Shown: positions 1,546-59,845, counted from the stretch's first letter. The stretch: DNA of 64,000 nt from a virus (IMGVR_UViG_3300014202_000879:117889-181888); one strand, 5' to 3'. Numbers and translations: made by a program. The notes: a model not told the origin generated them from the letters alone.

Positions 1546-3699
1546 TTATTCCCGTACAGAAATTATGTTAATGTTGACCCTGCCATAGGAGGGGTGAACG
1601 AGATTGATACTATTGGAATACCCACCGTATCTTAATCTTAATCCAGTTATTTCGTCCGTGATTTTAAACGCAAACGACATAGTGCCCGAATGCACCAACA
1701 GGTCTGAATTATCAAGATAATGGTTTGTTTCTCTTATGTCAACAAGTATGGGCTCGTTAACAGTCGTTGGGGTATCGACATCAACCTGTGCAAAAAACAT
1801 CATGGTGGAAAACGCATTGACCGAGATGTATTTCCAGAATTCGATATGCAAGTAGTAGTCGATGTTTACAATCACAGAGAAATTACTATCCCCGCGACCA
1901 GCTCCATCCGTAAGAATTCCCAAGAGCTCTTCTGATGTGACACCTGACGCAGTTCCATTAGCTCCGTCGGCAGAGGATAGATTCCAGAATGCGTTTGCTC
2001 CTGGTGTACTGAAGTCACCAATCGGAAGTCGTAAAGTTGTGAAGTTGTTGTAAGTAAGTGATTTTTTGCCAGTACCAGCGATAGCCTCACTCAGCCCAGT
2101 CACTTTGGACATAGGGATGGCTTGTAACTTACCAGACGCAACACTGTCCTCCGCTAGTTTTGCCCCGGATACGCTGTTGTCGATCAGCTTGGATCCGTTG
2201 ACGCCGTTGTCCATGAGCACGCGCCCATGCAAAGATTCATCAAGTATCTGGTGACGGGCTTGTTTTGCCGTTATCAAAGGCATCCCTGGACCAGGCGAGA
2301 ACTTGGAGAAAATCGTCTGCGTAGCCGTCGCTATGCCGAAGTAGCCGTCTTTCAAGAAACCACAAGGCGAGATAGCTGCCGGGTTAGGGTCATCTGGCCA
2401 GTTGTGTGGCCTCCAGGATTCAGTAGGTGTTGAGAGCGTCGTCGTCTCCAGAAACACCTCAGCAAAATGGGCACCTGCGGGAGCGGTAACAAAAATACCT
2501 CTCCACGTCATGTCAGAAAGACTGTGTATGGCCGCTGTCACACCAGCGTTCTCGACCCAGTCCGAGTAAGAGGTCTGGTTGGACGGTAGTGGCTGGTTGC
2601 CGCTATCTCGCCAAAGTACCCCAAGCCTGGTTTTCGCTTGAGTGGCTGCAAGGCGGCCTTGTAGTTCATACCTGAATCCAGGAACCACAGGAATGAAACC
2701 TGGGTAGAAAGTAGGATCGAGGCAAGGAGAAATAGAGAAAGTCGTTTGTGCATTGACGTTACGGAAGGATCTGGCTACCATGACGCCAGTCTCTCTTGCA
2801 GAAAACGGACCACGCAAAGCCAGCTCCACCGCATAGCCAAAAGCAAATCCAATGCTCTGACGCGCCAGCGACCCGAAGTCGTTTGAGAATGTTAATCCAC
2901 CCAACCGGTTGGCTGTGATATCGTCTGTGTAGACGGGTAAGTTGCCCGGCATGCCGCTTTGCTCATCATACCAGAAAACTGCCCACAGGCCCGAGCAAAC
3001 ATCGGGCAACATGTTGCCGCTACTGTATGCCTTTTGCCCTATGGACTCACGAATGTCGGCGTGCGAACCATTGCTGAGATTGTGTTGCTCGATAGCGGGA
3101 ACAGCACCAGCGGCATTCACCAAGTCACGCTGTTCTTTCACGTAGAGCATGGCACGCTCGAACGCAGGCACGTTCGACAGTGTCACGGCTTGCTGCAGCC
3201 GTTCAAGGCCCACGATCAGGCTTTGGAACCTGTAGAGATCCGCAAGCAAATGGGGATGCATCGACGGCGGGTACGTCAGCAGTGGATTTAAGACGTTCTC
3301 CCATTCGACCGGGCGTTCATCAGACACCACCGCCGCATACAGATCGTTGAGGGTCTGGGTCGATACACGGGTGAATCGCCCACCTGGCGTTTGGTACGTC
3401 AGGAGTGCATTGGTTGACATGCCTTGTTTATACACCAAGATAACGGCAGCAACTTCTTTGCCCGTCATGACGTTGAGTTCTTCGGAAATCTCAACGCACT
3501 TGTAGTCGACACCTTTGACCAAAGCAACACCTGGATCGGCAGCATCTTTCAGAACCACCGACTCTGTGAAGAATGGTCCATAGTCTGGCACCACCACACG
3601 GACGGTTGTGGCACCTAAGGCATGGGGTTCGTTTTGGATGAGGTTGGTGGGTGCTACACCACTCAAGTCCTCTGGATAGATGGAGATAGGATCTGGCAT
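1546..3699 (-). CDS. tail fibre / receptor-binding virion protein
   Basis: N-terminal domain (PDYGPFF...GVDY...PPSMHPH) resembles phiKZ-family fibre anchors and is paralogous to 3703..4407. Internal jelly-roll-like segment (APAGAHFAEVFL) and SxxxxKL repeats; chaperone gene follows. Confidence 0.7.
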   Translation of the reverse strand: MPDPISIYPEDLSGVAPTNLIQNEPHALGATTVRVVVPDYGPFFTESVVLKDAADPGVALVKGVDYKCVEISEELNVMTGKEVAAVILVYKQGMSTNALLTYQTPGGRFTRVSTQTLNDLYAAVVSDERPVEWENVLNPLLTYPPSMHPHLLADLYRFQSLIVGLERLQQAVTLSNVPAFERAMLYVKEQRDLVNAAGAVPAIEQHNLSNGSHADIRESIGQKAYSSGNMLPDVCSGLWAVFWYDEQSGMPGNLPVYTDDITANRLGGLTFSNDFGSLARQSIGFAFGYAVELALRGPFSARETGVMVARSFRNVNAQTTFSISPCLDPTFYPGFIPVVPGFRYELQGRLAATQAKTRLGVLWRDSGNQPLPSNQTSYSDWVENAGVTAAIHSLSDMTWRGIFVTAPAGAHFAEVFLETTTLSTPTESWRPHNWPDDPNPAAISPCGFLKDGYFGIATATQTIFSKFSPGPGMPLITAKQARHQILDESLHGRVLMDNGVNGSKLIDNSVSGAKLAEDSVASGKLQAIPMSKVTGLSEAIAGTGKKSLTYNNFTTLRLPIGDFSTPGANAFWNLSSADGANGTASGVTSEELLGILTDGAGRGDSNFSVIVNIDYYLHIEFWKYISVNAFSTMMFFAQVDVDTPTTVNEPILVDIRETNHYLDNSDLLVHSGTMSFAFKITDEITGLRLRYGGYSNSINLVHPSYGRVNINIISVRE

Positions 3700-5775: not shown

Positions 5776-6576
5776 TTACGGTATCCAAGCAGCTGCATTA
5801 CCTACGCCACCGATGTCGATGTTCCCTGTGCCATTGTAGTCGCCATTGACCTGTACGTCGCCATTGACGACCAGATTGCCATTCTGTGTCAGCTCAGGTG
5901 TGGTTATGTTGGCACCCGTTGTCGCAACAACATCGGCTTGCTCGCACTGAACCTGGACGTTTTTTGTCTGCACTGAGATCTTGTCTTTGGCCATCACAAC
6001 GATCTCGCTTTGAATACGGGCAGTGAACTTGTTGGCCTCACCGTCCATGTTGAGTATGTTGTCGTTGGTATCCTTGTAGGTAAAGATGCCTTTGTTCCAA
6101 TCACCGAACAAATCCATACCCACCTTCTCACCGTCGTTGGTGGGCGTATGGAAATGAAAGGTTTTCGAATCGCTGGAGATCATGAAGAACACCTGGTTTG
6201 AGATATCGGGTGCTTCTGTGGGCGATGCCTGCGATGGGTTGTTGGACACCACGTAGATGATGGTTTCTTTTTTCCTTAGGCCAGGTTCATACCCTGCTGG
6301 CATCCAGAAGAACCTGTCGGAGTCGGCATACCTGTAGATGTGTACAGATTCTTTTGCACAGACATCCGGTGGTGTGATGCGCTGGGTGTTGTCTGCACGT
6401 ATCCATTTGGCTTGGATGAGCACATCTTTGGTGCTGGCGATGTCTCCATCGACAAAAGGATGCTGTTCAGCTGGCCATACGTCGATGAAGTTGGAGTCCT
6501 TGGGTTTGTCCCTGGCCACGATGCCAATGGAGTAAAACCTCATCTGGGACATCATTTCAGAAAATCCATCACTCAT
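5776..6576 (-). CDS. baseplate central spike / puncturing protein (phiKZ gp164-like)
   Basis: OB-fold-like N-terminus (YSIGIVARDKP...AKW...ITPPDV) and C-terminal beta-helix repeats (NGNLVVNGDVQVNGDYNGTGNIDIGG); adjacent to sbcC as in phiKZ. Confidence 0.7.
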   Translation of the reverse strand: MSDGFSEMMSQMRFYSIGIVARDKPKDSNFIDVWPAEQHPFVDGDIASTKDVLIQAKWIRADNTQRITPPDVCAKESVHIYRYADSDRFFWMPAGYEPGLRKKETIIYVVSNNPSQASPTEAPDISNQVFFMISSDSKTFHFHTPTNDGEKVGMDLFGDWNKGIFTYKDTNDNILNMDGEANKFTARIQSEIVVMAKDKISVQTKNVQVQCEQADVVATTGANITTPELTQNGNLVVNGDVQVNGDYNGTGNIDIGGVGNAAAWIP

Positions 6577-6645
6577 GTCTGTATCCTTGTGTAGAGGTGA
6601 AATTTGATCGAATCATTTAATCTATTGAGCATAACAAGGATTACC

Positions 6646-9153
6646 ATGTACATTACTTCGCTTGAGTTGATCGAGTACAGACGGTTCAAACTTCTTCCAT
6701 TCAAAAGGTTTAAAGCCAACTTCACCAAAAGCATGGTGGTTTTGGTTGGGACAAACGGCTGTGGTAAATCTTCGATCTTGGCCGAGTGTTCTCCTTGGCC
6801 AGCCGACAGGAGTTTCTACCGAAAAGGTGGCAGCAAAACCATCGAGATAGAAAACAAGGGCAACCGCTACAAGCTGATTTCTGACTTCAGCAGCGACAAA
6901 CCCAAGTATCTCTTTTACAAGAACGACGAAGGCAATTTGAATCAAGGTGGCACCATGACCACTTACAAGGAGCTGGTAAAGTCAGAGTTCGGCATCACGG
7001 ACGACATTCACGAGGTCTTGTCTGGCTCCAAGTCCTTCTACAGCATGACCGTGGCTGAGAAAAGAAAGTGGTTCACCAGGATGCCTGGTGTGGACTACGA
7101 GTATGCCATCCGGTACTTTAAGAAATTGAAAGAGACCACCAAGTCCACAGCCGATGTGCTCAAGAACATGTCTGCTCGCCTGATCAAGGAAAAGAGTTTG
7201 CTGCTGAGCAAAGAAGCTGTACAAGAAATCGAGTCAGAGTTGGAGCATCTTCGCTCTACGCTGCACAACTTCCTGCATGAGAAAAGCAGCCGTGTGGTCG
7301 ATAAGCCTTACGTGAATTTTGCTGAGATGACCAGAAACAGCAATGCGCTGCTGGACAAGCTCAAAGAGATCTACACCTCCATTCAGAAAAGGATCAATAT
7401 CGATGAAGCTATGACCAGCATCAACGAAGTAAGCAACGAAATCACTGTTGAGAGAAAACTCAAAGACGACTTAGTTGACAGGCTCATGGATGCCACTGGC
7501 AAGTACGAGAAACTCAACCAAGAGTACACCAGCATCAAGATGGTGGATCCCGAGTCAGAGCTGGGTAAGCTTGCACAGGAGCTGGAGCGCCAGAAAGCCC
7601 AGCTGAGTTACCCTGACTTCCTTGAGAAAAATGGCTTGGATCTAAACGACCCTTCGGCCATCAGGTCGTTTGTCTATGCACTCAAGAACTCAGAGTCACT
7701 CATCGTGGAGTTGCAGAACTTTGAGTTGACTGAGGAGCAGGTCTCTGGCAGCTACATCTTCCAGCTAAGTTCGTCTCTGAACGATCTTCGGGTGATGAGC
7801 AAGTATGTCCAGACCTCGATAGGCGGATTGGAGACCAAACTGGCACACCTAGAGAAACACCGGTTAAATCCAGATACCATCTGCCCTGCATGCAACCACA
7901 CATGGAAACCAGGTTACACGGATGACGACTACGAAGACGCAACCAAGCAGATAGAGAAAAAGAGACAAGAACAGAAAAATCTGGCCATCATGATCAGCAC
8001 CACCGAGACCAATCTGGAACAAGCACAAATCCAGATGTCTTTGTACACATCTTTGATGGCTTTGCCCAGTCACAATCCCAACACCACCAACTATGTAGGC
8101 ATCGTTAAAAGCCATCTGTTCAACAACCTGGGCGATCTACCTAGGACCTACAACAACTTCTTATCCGACGCGGCCCTGTGTGTCAATATGGCGGCCACTC
8201 GCAACCGTATACAGGAGATCGAGTCTGTCATCAGGGCCAAGAAAGACAACATCGATGCCGTGCGAAGCGAGTTGTCTGGGTTGATCGAATCTCTTGGCAT
8301 CAGGATCGAAGAAAGATCGACAGCCATACGAGATCTTTATGCTCAAAAACAAAAGCTGGAGTTTGGTGTGCGTCAGGAGAAAAAACTCCAGGAGATGATC
8401 GCCACCACCAACGCCTACTGTAACAGCATCGATGATCTCGTGCGCAAAGAAGGTAGGCACCAACTCAATGTGTACCTGAACAACTGCATCTACGATCTGA
8501 AGTCGAACATCGCTATCCGAGAGCAGAAGATAGGTGTAGCCCGTATGCAACAAGCTGTGGTGCAAAAACTCAGTGCTGAGATCGACAGCCTGAGTACCCA
8601 GTTGGTTGGTATGCAAGCTGCTTGTGAAACCTTATCGCCCACCAATGGTCTCATTGCAAAAGGTTTGCATAACTTCTTGCAGTTCTTTACCAGTGAGATG
8701 AACGAGATCGTTGCTGAGGTGGCTACCTATCCACTGGAGGTCGTCTGCAACGGTGCTACCGATGAGGACATGAACCTGGACTTCAAGATGGAAGTCATCA
8801 CCAACAACCAAGTCGATGACAGTTCTCCCGATACCTCCAAGACTTCGTCTGGTCAAAAGGACATCATCGGTTTGGCTTTCAATTTGGCCAGCATAAAAGC
8901 ATACGGGTTGGGTGACCATCCTTTGTTCATGGATGAGTTTGGTGTGTATATGGACCATACCCATAGAAACAAAGCTGTTCGGTACGCAGAGAAATTGATG
9001 ATCGGTGGAAACTTTCAACAGTGTTTCATGGTTTCTCACCACAGTTCAGCTTACAGCAACCTGGCCAACGCACAAGTTATTGTTATCCACAAAGACAACG
9101 TGGTTATGCCAAGTGATTTAAAGACCGATCTCGATGTGATCATGGAGCTTTGA
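6646..9153 (+). CDS. sbcC: SbcC/Rad50-like SMC ATPase (phiKZ gp165-like)
   Basis: Walker A GTNGCGKS, long coiled coil with CPAC zinc hook, signature SSGQ, Walker B LFMDE, H-loop VSHH. ATG 6646 follows AAGGA (track start 6604). Confidence 0.9.
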   Translation: MYITSLELIEYRRFKLLPFKRFKANFTKSMVVLVGTNGCGKSSILAECSPWPADRSFYRKGGSKTIEIENKGNRYKLISDFSSDKPKYLFYKNDEGNLNQGGTMTTYKELVKSEFGITDDIHEVLSGSKSFYSMTVAEKRKWFTRMPGVDYEYAIRYFKKLKETTKSTADVLKNMSARLIKEKSLLLSKEAVQEIESELEHLRSTLHNFLHEKSSRVVDKPYVNFAEMTRNSNALLDKLKEIYTSIQKRINIDEAMTSINEVSNEITVERKLKDDLVDRLMDATGKYEKLNQEYTSIKMVDPESELGKLAQELERQKAQLSYPDFLEKNGLDLNDPSAIRSFVYALKNSESLIVELQNFELTEEQVSGSYIFQLSSSLNDLRVMSKYVQTSIGGLETKLAHLEKHRLNPDTICPACNHTWKPGYTDDDYEDATKQIEKKRQEQKNLAIMISTTETNLEQAQIQMSLYTSLMALPSHNPNTTNYVGIVKSHLFNNLGDLPRTYNNFLSDAALCVNMAATRNRIQEIESVIRAKKDNIDAVRSELSGLIESLGIRIEERSTAIRDLYAQKQKLEFGVRQEKKLQEMIATTNAYCNSIDDLVRKEGRHQLNVYLNNCIYDLKSNIAIREQKIGVARMQQAVVQKLSAEIDSLSTQLVGMQAACETLSPTNGLIAKGLHNFLQFFTSEMNEIVAEVATYPLEVVCNGATDEDMNLDFKMEVITNNQVDDSSPDTSKTSSGQKDIIGLAFNLASIKAYGLGDHPLFMDEFGVYMDHTHRNKAVRYAEKLMIGGNFQQCFMVSHHSSAYSNLANAQVIVIHKDNVVMPSDLKTDLDVIMEL

Positions 9154-50374: not shown

Positions 50375-50406
50375 CACCTACATGGGCCTCGCAGCCCATG
50401 TAGGTG
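50375..50406 (+). terminator. hairpin after the structural operon
   Basis: CACCTACATGGGC-CTCGCA-GCCCATGTAGGTG, 13-bp stem. Confidence 0.6.
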
Positions 50407-50432
50407 ATGGCTGCATGTATTTTATTTCATTG

Positions 50433-50450
50433 ATATATACTTGAATTGAC
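50433..50450 (+). promoter_or_regulatory. putative early (vRNAP) promoter motif
   Basis: ATATATACTTGAATTGAC. Confidence 0.7.
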
Positions 50451-50536
50451 ACACCTGCTAACAGTAGCTGGTTGTGACCGCTGCAGATCGCAGCAAGGGG
50501 TGAGCTTTACCCTGTATAAAGAGCAAGGAGATAATC
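50448..50536 (+). ncRNA. structured 5' leader RNA motif, copy A
   Basis: Three hairpins; invariant CTAACAGTAG; covaries with copies B and C. Confidence 0.7.
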
Positions 50537-50899
50537 ATGAGTTTCGCATATGTTATCGAGGGCGGGTTCCTGGCATGTTCCATCGACCAAACCACCGGGG
50601 TGTTCAAAGCCCCGGCAGGTGTGGATGTGGATGCATACGTCCGGTCGTTTGACCGGATCAAGCACATCCGCATCCCCCTGAAGGGCGAGGGGAAGTGGAC
50701 CCGGGTGGGCTCAGGGACAGCGGCCCTGAGCTACTGGGAGGCTGCCGCCAACCGTTCCCCTGACCAAGTGTCTCCTGAAAAGGATGACATCGAGTGGTCG
50801 GAGGACTGGGAGGGGTCGCTGGTCCAGGTGCGTTCCCAGCGCCAGCTCTATACCTGTCCATGGACAAGTGAGAGTTGGTGGTGGGAGACCGTCAGTTGA
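50537..50899 (+). CDS. hypothetical Trp-rich protein
   Basis: 120 aa with AAGGAG RBS; followed by a terminator. Confidence 0.75.
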   Translation: MSFAYVIEGGFLACSIDQTTGVFKAPAGVDVDAYVRSFDRIKHIRIPLKGEGKWTRVGSGTAALSYWEAAANRSPDQVSPEKDDIEWSEDWEGSLVQVRSQRQLYTCPWTSESWWWETVS

Positions 50900-51348: not shown

Positions 51349-51774
51349 ATGGATGTAAACAAACTCATGATCCAGCTGAACTACAGAATGCTTCCAGCGA
51401 ACACCCCGGTGGAAGTTTGCCTGACGCTCGATTGTCGTGGTGCAGATGGATCCATGATACATGACCGTTTGGTTCGTGAAACAGGAAAATACCTGTCGTT
51501 AAATGATAGAGGCAAACCCATCTGCAAAATCACAGCTTCCCTCAAGAACGTGGACAAGTCGATAGATGTGGTTGCACAAGTAAATGCTTTCCACAAGACA
51601 ATAGCCACAGAGCCATGGATAAAACAACATGGTGCGGGTCAAGCCAGAGGCATCGATTTTGTTATCCAGATACCAGAGGGCCGCAGCAAGTCGGCTACAG
51701 AACTGGTGGTTTCTGATGAAAAGTCACACAAGACAGGTACCGGCTTGTATCGATTCACAATCCTATATACCTAA
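51349..51774 (+). CDS. hypothetical protein
   Basis: ATG 51349 (MDVNKL...) follows the previous stop; track start 51262. Confidence 0.65.
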   Translation: MDVNKLMIQLNYRMLPANTPVEVCLTLDCRGADGSMIHDRLVRETGKYLSLNDRGKPICKITASLKNVDKSIDVVAQVNAFHKTIATEPWIKQHGAGQARGIDFVIQIPEGRSKSATELVVSDEKSHKTGTGLYRFTILYT

Positions 51775-51780
51775 ACTGAC
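51763..51780 (+). promoter_or_regulatory. putative early (vRNAP) promoter motif
   Basis: CTATATACCTAAACTGAC overlapping the upstream stop codon. Confidence 0.65.
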
Positions 51781-51865
51781 ACTCTAACTAACAGTAGTTG
51801 GGTTTGTCCGCTGCAGATCGCAGCAAAGGCCCGTGTTGCCTTTATAAAACACCAGGAGAGAAACA
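51778..51865 (+). ncRNA. structured 5' leader RNA motif, copy B
   Basis: Same three-hairpin architecture; third hairpin has a different sequence (AAAGGC/GCCTTT). Confidence 0.7.
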
Positions 51866-52519
51866 ATGGAAGTCGTTCAAACAGTTAGTGACCTCAAAGA
51901 ACTGTTGAAAAGCCTGAAGAAAGGCAAAAAATACGTTGAGTTTTTTCAGCTCAAAGACCATGTGGATTTCCACAAAGTCAAGAAAAACATCTTGGTCGTC
52001 CCGAACGGCCGGGTTGTCTTCACACCTGGCATAGATCGGGCATCGGTCTCAGCTGCCTACTCGGGCTGCTGGGTGTCGCGGATCAAAACGCCGGAAGGCA
52101 AGTCGGTACGGGTCACCATACTGGATTCCAGTTATTCTGGAAACTACTGGCTGTCGTTGAAACAAGCTCTTATCGTCAAGAGGGACAACCTCAAGATGAT
52201 CAACGGATGTCTTGATAGCGACGGAATTGATTCTGTCTTTTGTACCAACCACTGGTATACCAAAGACAGTAGGAGGCTGGCTACCGACGTAATGACGTTA
52301 CTGCCGAACGGCACCAACAAGTCCGAAAAAGTCTATCGGGTATCGACCTATAACAAAAGGTCTGTGATCGACGACTGGTTGGTGGACCAGGTTTTCAAAT
52401 ACAACCAGGACGTAATCGACATGATCGACATGTCGATCAGTATCCTTGACTTGGGCCCTATGAACTTCACCAGCCTGGAAGAGTGGGAAGCTGGTGCCCC
52501 TATCATCAACCTGAAGTAA
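51866..52519 (+). CDS. hypothetical protein
   Basis: 217 aa with AGGAG RBS. Confidence 0.75.
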   Translation: MEVVQTVSDLKELLKSLKKGKKYVEFFQLKDHVDFHKVKKNILVVPNGRVVFTPGIDRASVSAAYSGCWVSRIKTPEGKSVRVTILDSSYSGNYWLSLKQALIVKRDNLKMINGCLDSDGIDSVFCTNHWYTKDSRRLATDVMTLLPNGTNKSEKVYRVSTYNKRSVIDDWLVDQVFKYNQDVIDMIDMSISILDLGPMNFTSLEEWEAGAPIINLK

Positions 52520-52771: not shown

Positions 52772-52803
52772 AGGTACAGGGGATCCTAGGATCCCCTGTA
52801 CCT
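52772..52803. repeat. perfect 32-bp palindrome; probable terminator stem (T7 at 52821-52827)
   Basis: AGGTACAGGGGATCCT|AGGATCCCCTGTACCT. Confidence 0.85.
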
Positions 52804-52831
52804 ATAGTCATGTATGTATCTTTTTTTGTTC

Positions 52832-52849
52832 ACATATACTTCAATTGAC
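52832..52849 (+). promoter_or_regulatory. putative early (vRNAP) promoter motif
   Basis: ACATATACTTCAATTGAC. Confidence 0.7.
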
Positions 52850-52935
52850 ATACCCGCTAACAGTAGCTGGTTGTGTCGGTTGCAGGTCGCAACAAAGGGT
52901 GAGCTTTACCCTGTACAAAAAGCGAGGAGTTTCAC
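52847..52935 (+). ncRNA. structured 5' leader RNA motif, copy C
   Basis: Same architecture; GTTGC/GCAAC compensatory change in hairpin 2. Confidence 0.7.
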
Positions 52936-53271
52936 ATGACGATTTTCACCACCCCTACCCTCATTGGCGGTATCAGCAATGTGGCGCCATTCAGCACCAA
53001 CCCGGACGTGGACCGCTTGGTCCGTGAATTCGGCATGTTCTGGAAAAAGACCCCGCACCAGGGGGTCTGGCACATTGCGAAGAATGGCGCCCAGATCACC
53101 ATCGACCACCAAGACATGATTCGGGTGCACCAGTGCCCGACCGTCGCAGACTTCCGCAAGGGCTTCGAGAAGGACGTTTTGCGCACCGTCTTGGCAGTAC
53201 CTGTGGACTCGTTCTACAAGTACCCGGGACTCCAGGTCATCGAGCTTCTGAAGAAGCTGGGGCTGTGGTAA
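52936..53271 (+). CDS. hypothetical protein
   Basis: 111 aa with GAGGAG RBS and strong codon bias. Confidence 0.75.
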   Translation: MTIFTTPTLIGGISNVAPFSTNPDVDRLVREFGMFWKKTPHQGVWHIAKNGAQITIDHQDMIRVHQCPTVADFRKGFEKDVLRTVLAVPVDSFYKYPGLQVIELLKKLGLW

Positions 53272-53427: not shown

Positions 53428-53468
53428 GAGTAGCAACAGGCGCCACCCTGTTGCTACTCTTTTTTTTT
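53428..53468 (+). terminator. intrinsic terminator
   Basis: GAGTAGCAACAGG-CGCCAC-CCTGTTGCTACTC then T9. Confidence 0.8.
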
Positions 53469-55597
53469 CACCGAGACATACGCATGGAGTCGTACAGCTG
53501 ATCGAGCATCTCGTCGTAGGATCTTGCTTTCTTGCTGCTGGCTGGGAGAGCCGCAAAAGCTTGCTTAATCTGTAACTCCAACCTACTGCGCACATACTTG
53601 TCGCGTTCGGTGCGCAGCATCGTAGCCAGTAACTCAAACTTCATCACAGCAGCGTCCTCTATCCTTTTCTTCATCAGTGTCATAGGGTCGTTGTCTATGA
53701 TGCTGGCAGCGCTGGATTTAAGAATACTGCTGTGGTGCAGGCCATAGAACTGTGTGTTCCTGGCTGCCGTAAGGAACCAGTATGTCAACAACCAAGCGAT
53801 CACCAAGTCGTCATGGGCGCCGCTTCTGTGGTTGACCTTGCCGTTTTTATCCCTGATCAGAGCCATGATCTGGCTACACAGCTTCTTGCTGCGCATGGTT
53901 CTGGCACCGTGACGCAGCGCTTCTCGCATGGTGGTGCTAAATAGCTCGCTTCGGCTGGTCACACCCATGGCCGATGTAGCAAAGCCAAAAGTCTTTTTGC
54001 TACCATAAGCAACCTCATCACTCACCGTGTCTCTATTTATCAGTTTGTACAGACTTTCTTTTTCTTTGTGGTCATTCGCCACAAAGTTGAATATCCGTTT
54101 AAATGGGTTTAGGTTCTTCATCAAGAACATGGTGATCAGTGATTCCAGGATGGTGGGACCTGTGCTTCTTCTCTCACCGATCAGGATGGTGTTAGGGTAC
54201 CGCATCATGAAATCAAAAAGAAACTGTATGTACGAAGCTATGGTTGTCTCGTTGATGTCCATGTCAAGCAACACCTCGCCTGAGTTGGAGTGTGTGCCAA
54301 CAAGACCAATGGAGTCACCACCAGACGCATCCGATGTATCCAAACCCAACACAATAATGTCGTTGCTGAACGTGGTGTTCATCATACTGGGTTCCACATA
54401 CCACCGCATCATGTAACCATAAGGCTCCATGATCTCTACTTTCAGAGGATCTTGCTGACTGTTCTCAACAACTTGTCTGTCTGATTTCTCAAGAGCGGTG
54501 TTGGCTTCGCCAAACTTCCATTTGTTCAAGAAGTCTTTTTCAGCATCAGCGCCTTCAGCAGCAGCGTCAGCCATCCATTCCTGGATCTGCTCATCACTGA
54601 TACCCAGTTGTCTGTGGTTGAATTCGGTATAGACACGGTAAGGTACGTTTTTCTCGTTGGTACGGCTGTTGGTTTTGACGACCTTGCGCAGGTCTTGCTC
54701 GTTCCTACAGTCATACATGGTTTCGCTAAAAGGGGCTGAGTTCTGAGCCATCCTGTAAACGTACAAACCTTCGTCCTCAGCCAAGTCACCCACTGTGGTG
54801 GACATGATGGTACCATAAGGTGTTCCATTTTCTTTGGCTATGGTTCTCACCATGTTACCGGCTGCCAACATAGCAGGTACGCTGATACCTACGTTAGGGA
54901 TGTAGCATGGCTCATCGATGAAGTTGTTTTCGGACGTATGACCACGACCTACCATCTGAGCTGCTTTGGCGGACTTCTGGGGCACGAAACCAGTGTAGGT
55001 GTTGTCCAGTAAGCTGATCTTGATTTGCTCGGTGTTAGCGATATCTCGATCGCCCCTTGTCTTGAGATAGAAAGGGAGCTCCGAGTCGATCTTTTTCAAA
55101 CGCTCCAAGTTCTTGGCTCGAAGCTGATCATCCTTGGTCAACAAGTTGATGAAAGACTTTCTTAGCCTGAGCTCAAGCAACCATACAGCCAGTGTGTCGA
55201 TACCGTAAGACTTACCGGTTTGGCGTGGCTGCACCAGCAGGTTGAACACATGGTTGAAATACAACCAGTACGTGGCCATGTTGGCCCGGTTCATGTTGAA
55301 GATAGCTGGCTTGGTAGGTGTACTGTTGGGTGTGCGGGAACACTCGCGTATGAAGTACCAGAAATTGATGCTGGCTTCATTGGACACAAGCAGAGCCATA
55401 TCTCGGCTTATATTGGGGTCAAATGGGTCCACACCAATCAGACGCTCATCGTGCAAAGCCAGTGGCCATCGGTTGTTCTGGATACCCATTTCTTTGAGCA
55501 AAGAACAAAATCTCAGAGCATTTTCATTTTTTGTGTCGAAGTCTGGGAAGGCGGTTGGGTATCTGTCCCAGTCTTCCTCGTATAAAATAAGTGCCAT
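53468..55597 (-). CDS. terL: terminase large subunit (phiKZ gp25-like)
   Basis: Walker A QPRQTGKS, Walker B FIDEP, nuclease acidic motifs GLDTSDASGGDS and HDDLVIAWLL. ATG 55597 (MALILYEEDW); track start 55708. Confidence 0.92.
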   Translation of the reverse strand: MALILYEEDWDRYPTAFPDFDTKNENALRFCSLLKEMGIQNNRWPLALHDERLIGVDPFDPNISRDMALLVSNEASINFWYFIRECSRTPNSTPTKPAIFNMNRANMATYWLYFNHVFNLLVQPRQTGKSYGIDTLAVWLLELRLRKSFINLLTKDDQLRAKNLERLKKIDSELPFYLKTRGDRDIANTEQIKISLLDNTYTGFVPQKSAKAAQMVGRGHTSENNFIDEPCYIPNVGISVPAMLAAGNMVRTIAKENGTPYGTIMSTTVGDLAEDEGLYVYRMAQNSAPFSETMYDCRNEQDLRKVVKTNSRTNEKNVPYRVYTEFNHRQLGISDEQIQEWMADAAAEGADAEKDFLNKWKFGEANTALEKSDRQVVENSQQDPLKVEIMEPYGYMMRWYVEPSMMNTTFSNDIIVLGLDTSDASGGDSIGLVGTHSNSGEVLLDMDINETTIASYIQFLFDFMMRYPNTILIGERRSTGPTILESLITMFLMKNLNPFKRIFNFVANDHKEKESLYKLINRDTVSDEVAYGSKKTFGFATSAMGVTSRSELFSTTMREALRHGARTMRSKKLCSQIMALIRDKNGKVNHRSGAHDDLVIAWLLTYWFLTAARNTQFYGLHHSSILKSSAASIIDNDPMTLMKKRIEDAAVMKFELLATMLRTERDKYVRSRLELQIKQAFAALPASSKKARSYDEMLDQLYDSMRMSR

Positions 55598-55634
55598 TTC
55601 GGGTGCTGCCTTAAGTGTTATTGTGCCATAGGAT

Positions 55635-55677
55635 AAAAAGTATCCGCACCAGGGGCCTGAGCGCCCTGGTGCGGATA
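55635..55677 (-). terminator. intrinsic terminator upstream of terL
   Basis: TATCCGCACCAGGG / CCCTGGTGCGGATA, 14-bp stem followed by CTTTTT on the minus strand. Confidence 0.65.
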
Positions 55678-55738
55678 AACTCATCCGGCTGGATGTAGAG
55701 GAAAACAAATCACAAACACACCACTCAAGTCACACACA

Positions 55739-55939
55739 AAGTCTTGTTAAGAGGACGGCCTGCTCTCACCTATGGCACCGAAATCCATAAGTCGTAAAAG
55801 CGATATTGCGCACGGCATCGCAGACTTTTAGGATATTGATATCATAGTCTGTGGCGTGTGGGCAGGCTCGCCCACCTAACAAGACTTGGAAAGGCCTAGA
55901 GGGTGATCACGTTGCCGTGAAGTCTCTAAGTCTTTCCAA
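55739..55939 (-). ncRNA. putative structured non-coding RNA of unknown family
   Basis: Hairpin with GCAA tetraloop plus a long stem closing a multiloop with a UUCG loop; G-U pairs and tetraloops read correctly only on the minus strand. Confidence 0.6.
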
Positions 55940-55959
55940 ACTATTCAAACAAGCAGTAG

Positions 55960-56436
55960 CTAAAATACCGTAGAGTTGCCGCTGTTCCTGATTTCGTGTT
56001 CAATGAACTTCACGTAGAACTCCATCAGCAAATGAGCTATTGCCTCTTCTTCTATGTAATCAAACAACCAGGAGTGAAAAATACTCCTGTGCAGAGTAAA
56101 CTTCAGGTTGTTGTATTTCTCCAGGTGTTCTGGCAAGATATCGTCGAACTCGCACCCAACGACATAGCCTACGTAAGTCTGTCTGGAGACCGACCCCCGT
56201 TTGTAGACAACATCGTGGTAGAATTGCTTGTAAAACGTAAAGGTAAGTTTGGCGCCATTGTCCAGCAGGAGTGTGCTTACACCCAACTTGATTATGTTGG
56301 GCGCCATGGCTTGTTTGAAGAACCTGAGCCCGTACAGATGGATGATGGTTTTAAGCACCACACCAAACAAGTAACTCATCATCCCAGTAAAGACTGATTT
56401 TTTGTTGTTCATGGCATTTTTACGTGTTGGTTGCAT
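55960..56436 (-). CDS. hypothetical protein
   Basis: 158 aa with hydrophobic N-terminus; alternative ATG at 56412. Confidence 0.65.
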   Translation of the reverse strand: MQPTRKNAMNNKKSVFTGMMSYLFGVVLKTIIHLYGLRFFKQAMAPNIIKLGVSTLLLDNGAKLTFTFYKQFYHDVVYKRGSVSRQTYVGYVVGCEFDDILPEHLEKYNNLKFTLHRSIFHSWLFDYIEEEAIAHLLMEFYVKFIEHEIRNSGNSTVF

Positions 56437-56482
56437 GGATTCACAAGAGGATGCAGCAATCTAACACGGGCCTACCCTCGGT

Positions 56483-57718
56483 CTACCTCATCACGAGACT
56501 TCTAAGCGTGATATACAGTATAAGGCTTGTACGTGTGGACAACACAAGCGATTTGTTAGCAGAACGGTTATTCATGCTTTGTTTAACGACACTTTCACCC
56601 ATGGTGCGAATACGCTCGATGTCTTCGTCGATCAGACGTGTGGACAAGTAGAGGTTCTTCAGCTTGATGAGTACAGCAGAGTAGTCTCTCTTTTGGGTGT
56701 GCTCGATCCGGTTGGCTATCAGATCGTAGCTGTAGACCAACACACCCGAGACAAAATCACGCACCAACACAGCAGTGGCCTGGTTCATGTAGCCATCGCT
56801 GAGCCACTTTAGACCTGTCTCTATAGCGTACACCGAAGTGTTTTTATTGATGTCGCGAATGACATCAATCAAGTCCCCATGTATAAAGCTGTTTTGGTCA
56901 GCCAGTACCGTCATGAATGTTGCAATGTGGCTATCCAGACTCTTGACCTTTTCTTTCATGATCTCTTTGCCTTCTGCATCGGTCATGGTGGCCGATGTGG
57001 AGGATATCCTCAGACCAGAGTCGTGGACTTTCTTGAATTCACGGTAGTAGGGCTTCATTGCAGATCGTAAAGCACCCTGTGAATTATTCATCGCATAGAC
57101 GACCTTAGAATCGTCCCTGAAGCTCTTTAGATCCCTCAGGTGCACTGACTCAGGTGCAATCAAAGATTTCGCTCTGAAGTCCATTAAAGCCGCCCACGAT
57201 CCAAGCTTCTTGATCAGGAACTTTTTGTTCAGCTGAGCGAAAGCAGCTTCTGCTATCTCAGGTGATGTCGTGCCCCTGTTGAAGTAATGACTCATCAACG
57301 CAGCGATGCACCGGTAAAAGAAGATCAAGCCGCTGTTGTAGCAGGCAGTGTACCTGGCCTTGGCATCCATACTGGGCTCATTCAAGAACCGATGGATGAG
57401 GTACATACATGTTTGGTTGAGCGTGTCGCCAGAGACTTTGAATGAGCTGTCGATACCGGTGGCTTCTTTCACGACACGGCTTCTGAGCTGATCGTAGTCG
57501 ACATCGAGCACATCATCAAAGAACTTGTAGACGGTGGCGTCTGTGAAGTGTACTTTGTGTGCACCCAACAAATGACCACTGAAGAAATTCAGGTGGTCCT
57601 CGTTCATGTTGATGAACATCAAGCTGAAATTGTAGATTCTCTTCGATAGTGCCGGGTCGAACTTGACACGATGGAATTCCTCATCGAAGATTTGTTTGAG
57701 TGTAAGGCCTTCCACCAT
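56483..57718 (-). CDS. conserved phiKZ-like core hypothetical protein
   Basis: 411 aa; LNKKFLIKKLGSW and LKNLYLSTR motifs. Confidence 0.75.
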   Translation of the reverse strand: MVEGLTLKQIFDEEFHRVKFDPALSKRIYNFSLMFINMNEDHLNFFSGHLLGAHKVHFTDATVYKFFDDVLDVDYDQLRSRVVKEATGIDSSFKVSGDTLNQTCMYLIHRFLNEPSMDAKARYTACYNSGLIFFYRCIAALMSHYFNRGTTSPEIAEAAFAQLNKKFLIKKLGSWAALMDFRAKSLIAPESVHLRDLKSFRDDSKVVYAMNNSQGALRSAMKPYYREFKKVHDSGLRISSTSATMTDAEGKEIMKEKVKSLDSHIATFMTVLADQNSFIHGDLIDVIRDINKNTSVYAIETGLKWLSDGYMNQATAVLVRDFVSGVLVYSYDLIANRIEHTQKRDYSAVLIKLKNLYLSTRLIDEDIERIRTMGESVVKQSMNNRSANKSLVLSTRTSLILYITLRSLVMR

Positions 57719-58538: not shown

Positions 58539-58747
58539 CCACTCTGGGTGTCTGGACGTAGCGTAGCGTAGTACAGAGCATGTCTTGCGCAGCACATTCT
58601 AACCTTCGTTTACAACTACGGTAGGGGATGCGTGTCTGGCGAGTCGCTTGTTCTAGTCGGCGTGTTCCGGGGAAGAGCTTTTTACGCTCCAAACAATATA
58701 CATGGGAGATAATAAAAACCGGAACTGTTTCTAAGCTGCGCAAACTC

Positions 58748-58765
58748 ACATATACCTTAACTGAC
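58748..58765 (+). promoter_or_regulatory. putative early (vRNAP) promoter motif
   Basis: ACATATACCTTAACTGAC upstream of phuZ. Confidence 0.65.
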
Positions 58766-58819
58766 ATAGCAAGCACTGTGATGTCATCAACCCTTTTACC
58801 TTTAGAGAAAGCGTTCCTC

Positions 58820-59845
58820 ATGAACACACTTCGTCAACCACAACAGATCCGTATCTATGCCGCTGGTGGTGCAGGTCTGAACATCGTTCAAGCATTCATG
58901 GCCGGTCCTCGAACTGCCGACAGCATGGCGGTTACTGCTGTCTTGAAACCGTGCTACTTGGACACGTCCTATTCGGACATCCATGCTGGCACCGACCGCA
59001 GCCAGATCTTTCACCTGAATGACTCGGGTGATGCCTCCATCACACACGACGGTGGCGGCAAGATCCAGTCTTTCAACAACGCGGCCATCCGCGACAGCAT
59101 CCAACCCATGCTGGGTCGCTTTGAACCCACGTTGTTCAACATCATCGTCTCCAGCGCCAGCGGCAGCTCCGGCAGCGTGTTCGGCCTGCACACGGCTGCC
59201 CAGCTTTTGGAGATGGGCAAGATTCCACTGGTGATTCTGATCGGCACCACGGCCTCTTCTTTGGAGATGCGCAACACAGCGCGTACCATCGAGAAGTTCC
59301 GCGAGGTGGCTGCGGCGTATAAGAAGCCGATCAGTATTTACTACGTGGAGAATGGCCACGGGCGAAGCATTGTTGATGTGGACCGTGATGTGCAGGGCAT
59401 GATCAGCCATCTGGCCGTCATGCTGAGTGGCATGAATGCCAAACTGGATACCCAGGACTTCGTCACGTTCTTCGACTACACGCGTGTAGCCGAAATTCCC
59501 CCCACGGCCGTGCTCATCGATTCCGGTGCACTGGAAAAAAGCGACGGTGGCCGGACAATCATCAGCAAGGTGCAGTTGTTGCGCCCTGGCATCGATGCCA
59601 GTAGCTATGCTTTGACAGATGTGGAAAAAGGCCTGGCCTACCACACCTGGGGTTACTACCCAGACAGCTTGGTGGGGACCATACAGAAGCCCGCAGAAGC
59701 TTTCCAGCTCTGTATGTACGTCGGCTTCTTCACCATGCTGGAGAAGACGCTGAAGGAAAAAGCCAGCGGCCAGGAAGCGCGCCAGAAGGCGTTTGCACGT
59801 GACGCAGTACCTGCCACTGCAGACAAGCGTTCCATCAACTTCTGA
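58820..59845 (+). CDS. phuZ: phage tubulin PhuZ
   Basis: IYAAGGAGLNI, YLDTS, GGGK, SASGSSGSV (T4 loop), N..LDTQD (T7 loop). ATG 58820 lies downstream of the promoter (track start 58628). Confidence 0.9.
   Translation: MNTLRQPQQIRIYAAGGAGLNIVQAFMAGPRTADSMAVTAVLKPCYLDTSYSDIHAGTDRSQIFHLNDSGDASITHDGGGKIQSFNNAAIRDSIQPMLGRFEPTLFNIIVSSASGSSGSVFGLHTAAQLLEMGKIPLVILIGTTASSLEMRNTARTIEKFREVAAAYKKPISIYYVENGHGRSIVDVDRDVQGMISHLAVMLSGMNAKLDTQDFVTFFDYTRVAEIPPTAVLIDSGALEKSDGGRTIISKVQLLRPGIDASSYALTDVEKGLAYHTWGYYPDSLVGTIQKPAEAFQLCMYVGFFTMLEKTLKEKASGQEARQKAFARDAVPATADKRSINF

Follow-up and report, generated by a model that had tools for sequence, protein, structure and literature searches.

The DNA analysed here, referred to as the window, is a stretch of 64,000 nucleotides (IMGVR_UViG_3300014202_000879:117889-181888) within an IMG/VR record of 207 kb, for which a completeness of 71% is estimated. 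On its minus strand, the gene for the large terminase subunit, terL (53468-55597, 709 aa), was assigned to PHROG 2 (terminase large subunit, E = 2.8e-39). The full-length protein shares 34-37% identity with TerL of cultured phages, the best being Burkholderia phage FLC9, Ralstonia phages RP12/RSL2 and phiKZ-like Pseudomonas phages. As the window also carries a gene for the PhuZ tubulin (58628-59845), the combination of a phiKZ-type TerL with PhuZ identifies the source as an uncultivated, chimallivirus-like (nucleus-forming) jumbo phage. Between the stop codon of an ORF of 158 aa (55960-56436, minus strand) and the terL start codon (55597) lie 362 non-coding bases, which together with the adjoining ORF comprise the following features:

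55960..56436, minus strand: upstream ORF of 158 aa, function not assigned (ORF list; homologues in relatives)
55924..55944, minus strand: conserved 5' segment ATAGTTTGGAAAGACTTAGAG, containing the 5' strands of both Domain 1 stems (match to contig L122)
55886..55939, minus strand: Domain 1, with an outer stem of 8 bp, an inner stem of 7 bp, an apical stem of 5 bp and a GCAA tetraloop (sequence, MFE and centroid structures)
55739..55887, minus strand: Domain 2, a stalk of ~24 bp closing a multiloop of ~100 nt (sequence, MFE structure)
55677..55738, minus strand: single-stranded linker rich in U and GU (sequence)
55633..55676, minus strand: intrinsic terminator, a GC-rich hairpin of 35 nt (55676-55642) followed by A-C-U5-A-U (sequence, RNAfold)
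55598..55630, minus strand: candidate late promoter or start site TATG (55630-55627) and terL 5' UTR (shared with phage PA7)

The 158-aa protein gave no match in Pfam and PHROG searches. Its AlphaFold model has a pLDDT of 72; Foldseek found nothing TerS-like in the PDB, and its BFVD matches were all uncharacterised phage proteins. The idea that this ORF represents a hidden small terminase is therefore unsupported by Pfam, PHROGs and Foldseek. A small terminase missing beside terL is in itself no clue, because in the chimallivirus PCH45 the small terminase is annotated as gp77 and the large one as gp159 (preprint 10.64898/2025.12.19.695335).

All helices listed in a first-pass annotation of this gap were found in place in the minus-strand sequence. 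Domain 1 (55939-55886) is formed by the pairings UUGGAAAG/CUUUCCAA and CUUAGAG/CUCUAGG, the latter with one G.U pair, and by the hairpin UCACG-GCAA-CGUGA. The stalk of Domain 2 (55887-55739) consists of 11 perfect base pairs (AAGUCUUGUUA/UAACAAGACUU) followed by GGGCG/CGUCC and GCCUGC/GCAGGC, with two interruptions. Domain 1, the terminator and the stem that closes Domain 2 are all reproduced by RNAfold; the interior arms that had been drawn for Domain 2 are, in contrast to its closing stem, uncertain, as both MFE and centroid structures disagree with them. Inside this domain, an internal loop CCUAAA/UAUGG (55791-55835, minus strand) is located between the helices AUCC/GGAU and AAGUC/GACUU and, apart from one G-to-A change, matches the 11-nt GNRA tetraloop receptor in its geometry. 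It was dismissed as a sign of a tertiary fold, since it occurs in this phage only among the relatives described below, and may be a chance resemblance.

The linker comprises (UG)4 (55738-55731), UGAGUGG (55727-55721), the U-rich segment GUUUGUGAUUUGUUUU and a small hairpin, CAUCC-AGCC-GGAUG (55695-55682). It is followed by the terminator hairpin (~-30.8 kcal/mol) with ACUUUUUAU directly 3' and U5 at 55639-55635, so that a GC-rich hairpin and a U tract, as expected of an intrinsic terminator, are both present on the transcribed strand at 55676-55635. The previously described order of this terminator and a TATG 30 nt before the terL ATG was likewise confirmed.

Folding of the whole gap is far stronger than expected by chance (z = -7.03; 0/100 shuffles fold as well), and the same holds for Domains 1 and 2 alone (55739-55939; z = -7.08, with none of 200 shuffles as good). 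In degree of structure, the gap ranks second among the 30 ORF-free gaps of at least 150 nt in the 207-kb genome. The most structured of these (G000:C1:95959-96188, ~21.8 kb before the window start; z = -8.3 and -7.4) contains back-to-back strong terminator hairpins and further GC-rich hairpins, and looks like a bidirectional terminator cluster, unlike the element upstream of terL.

No known RNA or gene family accounts for the region. A cmscan search of positions 55000-56600 on both strands against Rfam, with E values up to 10, yielded one chance snoRNA match located elsewhere, and the corresponding loci of four relatives gave nothing relevant at E up to 1. A known family was thus not matched in the region or in the relatives' loci. 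ARAGORN detected no tRNA or tmRNA. No match among 50,697 phage records was obtained by blastn with the gaps of this phage, L011 and L105 (contigs of relatives, see below). In IMG/VR, neither a scan for exact 20-mers nor a single-protein locus search gave a hit, and a search for a second copy in the 207-kb genome returned self-matches only. A group I or II intron is not indicated, since the alignment with known TerL proteins starts at residue 1, none of the relatives has an incomplete upstream ORF and no Rfam intron model matched the region or the relatives' loci. Similarly, the element lacks the properties of a MITE, being single-copy, with repeats that differ between lineages and without a match in the phage collection. 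Six-frame comparison of the gaps of all relatives revealed no conserved peptide, which indicates that the region is non-coding. Folding, relatives and the absence of a conserved peptide altogether support the view of the first-pass annotation that a discrete, highly structured, non-coding RNA is encoded on the minus strand.

A protein search across 5.8 billion sequences retrieved only a handful of TerL proteins with more than 43% identity, and their contigs (labelled L) were compared with the window. Gene order is kept in all of these relatives: first a protein of ~410 aa, then the ~150-aa homologue of the 158-aa ORF product, the gap, and terL. The ~150-aa homologues are 30-37% identical across relatives (69% in contig L122), and this family invariably lies directly before the element in the subclade. 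Wastewater runs labelled "RNA-Seq" that contain relatives yielded low-depth contigs, which are probably DNA carry-over and so carry no information on transcription. In relatives with at least 43% TerL identity, gap lengths range from 220 to 690 nt overall:

L010/L040/L041/L105: 474-595 nt
L011-L013: 690 nt
L015/L016: 261 nt
L017: 220 nt
L014: 237 nt

In FLC9 and the phiKZ-like phage PA7, the gaps (150 nt and 139 nt, respectively) contain a terminator hairpin and TATG only, and more distant metagenomic chimalliviruses mostly have gaps below 130 nt or an altered gene order. The long gaps of close relatives and the terminator-TATG unit standing alone in FLC9 and PA7 indicate that the structured domain is a subclade-specific addition. 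It lies between the stop codon upstream and a terminator-promoter module that was already there.

A common layout is shared by this phage, the L010 group, L011, L015 and L017: a closing stem of 11 to more than 30 bp, a variable interior, a single strand that is first U-rich and then GU-rich, and a terminator, with TATG near the terL start in most cases. The interior differs widely in size and shape, and the element domain spans ~60 to ~450 nt across lineages, the extremes being one hairpin of ~25 bp in L017 and a domain of ~450 nt in L105. The domains share no common primary sequence across lineages and are not alignable outside the pair of this phage and L122 and the L010 group. Conservation of structure upstream of terL in related jumbo phages, a check suggested in the earlier annotation, therefore holds for the module layout and the pairing of the closing stalk, and does not extend to the interior fold.

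In the L010 lineage, the upstream ORF is followed by a separate terminator and then by an AT-rich TATATAC-like box ahead of the element. This box resembles the early-promoter core of the phage studied here (TATATAC..AA.TGAC); with the separate terminator and this candidate promoter, the element may be an independent unit in that lineage. In the window, the early-type core ATATATAC..AA.TGAC occurs in three copies on the plus strand (50380-50545, 51710-51875 and 52780-52945), each followed by a conserved leader of ~85 nt with an invariant CTAACAGTAG and an AGGAG ribosome-binding site.

Regarding the strand, the window alone is ambiguous. The plus strand of this phage folds equally well (z = -6.9; -85.1 versus -84.2 kcal/mol, G.U pairs 8 versus 10), and the earlier statement that G-U pairs are right only on the minus strand does not follow from the window by itself. 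The accompanying statement on the tetraloops holds: both GNRA (GCAA) and UUCG are correct only when read in the terL sense. Assignment to the minus strand is based on these two loops and, far more strongly, on the folding of the relatives, for which the following values were obtained:

L011: MFE -257 kcal/mol sense, -180 kcal/mol antisense; G.U pairs 47 and 4
L015: MFE -98 kcal/mol sense, -70 kcal/mol antisense; G.U pairs 16 and 2
L010: MFE -167 kcal/mol sense, -132 kcal/mol antisense; G.U pairs 21 and 5
L017: MFE -61 kcal/mol sense, -43 kcal/mol antisense; G.U pairs 17 and 5

After removal of the terminator, the sense z-scores of the relatives are -7 to -8 and still beyond the antisense values. 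L014 showed no sense-strand folding bias and may be without the element. Since the stems of the relatives are rich in wobble pairs, they cannot be DNA cruciforms.

Among the usable homologues, the nearest is L122, a Logan contig assembled from the run (SRR32678450) that also yielded a TerL of 78% identity (L009). In this run, assembly breaks fall at L009 1-17 and L122 1100-1165; low depth is the likely cause, a physical DNA end the less likely one. L122 retains the inner stem of Domain 1 and the closing stem of Domain 2 at offsets from the stop codon that are identical to those in this phage. Over the 13 aligned pairs of the Domain 2 stem, the two sequences differ by five double compensatory changes, the deletion of one whole pair and one single change from wobble to Watson-Crick, and no pair is broken. 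In the inner stem of Domain 1, pairing is kept via one-sided changes. The 5' segment ATAGTTTGGAAAGACTTAGAG is identical at 21/22 positions (p<0.01, shuffles); as a recurring motif or promoter of the genome it found no support, its matches with three mismatches being no more numerous than those of a reversed control. Not conserved between L122 and this phage are the 3' strand of the outer Domain 1 stem, the apical hairpin, the interior of Domain 2 and the (UG)n tract, in place of which L122 has a long hairpin.

Further variants were found among the other relatives. Double changes between L010 and L105 preserve one internal hairpin and the terminator stem. In wastewater contigs with 90-98% identity to the window, a C-to-U change turns a G-C pair into G.U, a UGUG insertion is located in the linker at 55730, and a variant of the terminator stem is fully compensated. 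Taken together with the changes in L122 and the stronger folding of relatives in sense, this pattern indicates that selection acts on RNA pairing in the terL-sense strand, with the reservation that compensatory changes in long inverted repeats can also arise without selection, by hairpin-templated repair.

Constraint is unevenly distributed along the element. Between L010 and L040, nucleotide identity amounts to 84% in terL, 81% in the upstream ORF and 91-97% in the outer parts of the gap, where the hairpin, the GU linker and the terminator are best conserved (93-97% for the GU/U-rich tract and hairpin H), and drops to 67% in the interior, which also carries an indel of 120 nt. Between L011 and L012, the gap shows 11 changes in 690 nt compared with 13/718 at third positions of terL, i.e. 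approximately the synonymous rate, and much of the interior is thus under little constraint. From conserved outer parts around a drifting interior it follows that the stalk and the 3' module are what selection maintains, and not a complex fold inside the domain. This speaks against a machine of the ribozyme or pRNA type and fits a processed or terminator-ended RNA with an exposed strand and the terminator as its active end.

The 3' module was found to be shared beyond the alignable lineages. Local alignment of this phage with L011 yielded the common sequence ACUUU-(UG)n-UGAGUGG.GUG, and both the linker and the complete terminator are common to L011 and L015 (each p about 0.01 versus shuffles). 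Three independent lineages (this phage, L011 and L015) carry (UG)4 or longer directly 3' of the closing stem, an octamer that is rare in the loci. Equivalent terminator hairpins with U5-U11 are present in L010, L011, L015 and L017. A general terminator signal of this phage was ruled out for the GU motif, which occurs at 0/65 terminator-like sites of the genome.

Hfq-binding modules reportedly consist of a U-rich strand, one or two hairpins and a poly-U tail. In terms of sequence layout, the same order is seen here (GUUUGUGAUUUGUUUU, the small hairpin at 55695-55682, the terminator and U5) and recurs in L010, L011, L015 and L017, so that by analogy the 3' end resembles an Hfq-type sRNA module. 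Besides that, the stalks provide the double-stranded length associated with RNase III (at least 20 bp, about two turns), with ~24 bp in this phage, 22 bp in L122, 22 perfect pairs in L011, ~19 + 10 bp in L015 and ~25 bp in L017.

Candidate partners of the linker were also considered. At the 197 translation starts of the phage, complements of the linker were not enriched compared with shuffles, which gives no support to a function as a seed against these starts. The best local complements of the GU motif lie near the start of the ~150-aa upstream ORF in L010/L040 (L010 282-300, L040 1435-1470), L015 (3266-3285) and L017 (about 263), with none at this place in this phage or L011; this is a weak lead, confounded by the His/Thr/Lys-rich N-terminus with its CA-rich codons. 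A pseudoknot between linker and interior (GUGGUGUGU with ACACGCCAC, in this phage) was neither significant nor conserved and was rejected.

As to the transcription of terL itself, TATG reportedly marks late start sites in phiKZ, and it occurs 30-45 nt before the terL ATG in many relatives. The putative terL 5' UTR begins with TATGGCACA.UAA in both this phage and PA7, right after the terminator of PA7. Given this shared start, transcription of terL most likely begins downstream of the terminator, and a candidate TATG promoter of its own at this position argues that the element is not the terL leader. The similarity of the 5' UTRs (window 55598-55630; L121, i.e. PA7, 3460-3500) later includes CUUAA.GG.CAG, though the TerL proteins are only 34% identical, and may reflect a late start or leader for terL that is conserved across distant chimalliviruses. 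In the MFE structure of this phage, the linker pairs with the terL 5' UTR including the AAGG ribosome-binding region (-26 kcal/mol). Masking of the ribosome-binding site by the linker was rejected as a conserved feature, being significant in L105 only (p = 0.017), with p = 0.09 in this phage and no such pairing in L011.

Structure, conservation, strand, module layout and position relative to terminator and promoter are shown directly by the compared loci; the element is real and conserved, and seems not to have been described before. We give about even chances to the reading that it is a lineage-specific structured RNA in the terL sense, with its end at the terminator at 55676-55635. Such an RNA would be the 3' untranslated end of the 158-aa ORF transcript or an independent short transcript, and terL would be transcribed separately from the late-type TATG promoter 3' of the terminator. 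The parts kept by evolution are the long stalk around a freely evolving interior, the single strand rich in U and GU, and the terminator with its U tail. In the mechanism that we consider most likely, the RNA would accumulate as a stable fragment ending at the terminator, perhaps freed by cleavage in the linker or in the stalk, which at 20 bp or more would be long enough for RNase III, and the exposed GU-rich strand would then act on a partner, either RNA or protein. Its transcription, its processing and such a partner are inferred here; a simpler role, in which it stabilises the 3' end of the upstream mRNA or retro-regulates this mRNA, comes close in likelihood. A more far-reaching version, for which we see an outside chance, is that the element is the founding member of a new family of chimallivirus non-coding RNAs whose stalk-closed body and GU strand would bind, at a late stage of infection, a phage or host factor such as a terminase- or nuclear-shell-associated protein that binds RNA, or an RNA chaperone of the host, and which would serve as a trans-acting regulator or cofactor of late expression or packaging and not as a passive 3' end.

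The main alternative to the terminator-ended RNA is a passive 3' structure, whose stalk and hairpins would either shield the upstream late mRNA or destabilise it, by blocking exonucleases or by RNase III retro-regulation as at lambda sib or the RNase III sites of T7, with no trans-acting RNA involved. In this strict form it is rather unlikely, yet to be taken seriously: the element directly follows the stop codon of a conserved ORF, good conservation is limited to stalk and terminator, with a drifting interior, the element of L017 is a single 25-bp hairpin, and stalks of at least 20 bp are found in this phage, L122, L011, L015 and L017. It leaves unexplained, however, why conservation in the L010 lineage peaks in the single-stranded GU/U-rich tract and in hairpin H (93-97%); moreover, in FLC9 and PA7 the terminator hairpin alone already protects the 3' end, and in the L010 lineage the upstream ORF is terminated before the element. 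A cis-acting leader, the attenuator of terL that the first-pass annotation had offered as one of two options, would require read-through from the upstream operon, with the structured domain modulating termination. The order of domain, linker, terminator and gene is indeed typical of many attenuators, and the pairing of the linker with the terL 5' UTR including AAGG in the MFE structure would suit this model. Nevertheless, we regard it as improbable: the late-type TATG and the 5' UTR shared with PA7 lie 3' of the terminator, FLC9 and PA7 carry the terminator and TATG without the structured domain, the pairing is neither significant in this phage (p = 0.09) nor conserved, and Rfam contains no matching leader or riboswitch. 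Furthermore, no credible antiterminator was found against the hairpin of ~-30 kcal/mol, inspection yielding only a competitor of 5 bp.

Three further explanations concern the DNA, its history or the packaging machinery. In many headful phages, pac sites lie in or beside the terminase genes, and the inverted repeats and (TG)n next to terL might accordingly be a pac site, an origin or a recombination hot spot. In line with such a DNA-level element, both strands fold equally well in this phage, the (TG)n tract is polymorphic in length, the interior turns over by indels, and the SRR32678450 assembly breaks in the gap, where L122 ends and L009 starts 17 nt before terL. However, the breaks stem from short low-depth contigs, the G.U pairs that abound in the stems of the relatives would turn into G.T or A.C mismatches at the DNA level, the antisense strands of these relatives fold far less well, and the GNRA and UUCG loops are correct in the sense strand only, which makes this explanation a remote one. 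Still more remote is a functionless relic of mobile or selfish DNA, derived from a MITE-like element, an intron or a homing element and inserted where it is tolerated, as suggested by terminal inverted repeats around a variable, near-neutral interior and by the restriction to one subclade. Against it, the element is single-copy and unmatched in the 50,697 phage records, no target-site duplication is seen at its borders, no group I/II intron matches and neither flanking gene is split; its inverted repeats differ in each lineage yet stay paired through compensatory and wobble changes, and its outer parts are more conserved than the neighbouring genes. The least probable of all, hardly to be expected, is a packaging-motor RNA like the phi29 pRNA or another RNA cofactor of the terminase, which had been put forward as a speculative analogy. 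Its only support is the adjacency to terL and the lack of a recognisable small terminase next door, and the phi29 pRNA gene is itself not located beside its ATPase gene. The covariance model of the phi29 pRNA in Rfam matched neither the region nor the relatives, and a conserved pRNA-type fold is missing: a closing stalk and one hairpin are all that is shared with L122, the size varies from a single hairpin (~60 nt) to ~450 nt with no fold common to the lineages, and the interior drifts at about the synonymous rate. In addition, cultured chimalliviruses package their DNA without such a domain at this locus, and the distance between gp77 and gp159 in PCH45 shows that TerS need not be adjacent in this family.

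Among known systems, the terminator-ended RNA proposed here is most readily compared with Hfq-type sRNAs that end at a terminator, including 3'-UTR-derived ones and GcvB with its G/U-rich seed. These likewise combine a structured body, a U/GU strand, one or two hairpins and poly-U, are located at the 3' end of a coding unit or between two terminators, and have a 3' module that is better conserved than the body. The element differs from them in its body of ~200 nt (up to ~450 nt in relatives) with a long stalk and in being phage-encoded; its link to Hfq is one of layout, the search for targets gave none, and L122, its nearest homologue, lacks the GU tract. With RNase III sites such as the intergenic R sites of T7 and sib of lambda, it has in common an intergenic position on the sense strand, a long imperfect stalk after a gene, and pairing that is kept while the sequence drifts. 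Those sites are single hairpins of ~50-60 nt, whereas the element is multi-branched and has a conserved single strand and a separate terminator.

Phage-encoded RNAs offer further parallels. The sRNA005 of 201phi2-1 and an sRNA upstream of gp182 in phiKZ are 5'-UTR-derived, shorter than 250 nt and produced by premature termination after a promoter (PMC11512511). They resemble the putatively expressed element as short, terminated non-coding RNAs with a conserved position beside a structural gene, but precede a tail gene and not the terL promoter, and are unrelated in sequence. A literature search for small RNAs at terL in chimalliviruses returned none. The phi29 pRNA (Rfam Phage_pRNA) is also phage-encoded, of similar size, and keeps its helices while its sequence drifts; in contrast to it, the element matches no model and has no conserved three-way junction, and phage type and packaging enzyme differ. 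The staphylococcal cabRNA is another structured RNA from a phage terminase gene region, which is transcribed within the terminase subunit genes and sensed by the host CBASS cyclase (PMC10686824), whereas the element is intergenic.

The RNA biology of nucleus-forming jumbo phages is almost unexplored, and the reported sRNAs that we found come from cultured Pseudomonas phages and from other loci. Against this background, the element is a well-defined candidate, with its anatomy, strand assignment, compensatory evolution and natural variants all drawn from uncultivated phages of wastewater and the environment. Should it be a stable RNA, chimalliviruses would acquire and maintain lineage-specific regulatory RNAs beside core morphogenesis genes, and the locus would provide a natural test case for constraint, which would be present in the stalk and 3' module and not in the interior. 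If it is merely a 3' stabiliser, it would be an ordinary one.

The comparison of terL loci also revealed variation in and around the gene itself. Some relatives of TerL greatly exceed it in length or have matches that extend over 2.6-3.0 kb (P0104 with 970 aa; L031, L036, L079 and L110), and one of the long proteins carries a Hint domain (PF13403), which suggests candidate inteins or introns within terL of other chimallivirus lineages. In L018, where TerL is 42% identical and the gene order differs, a gene with a weak match to Transposase_20 (6565-7503) is located just 3' of terL.
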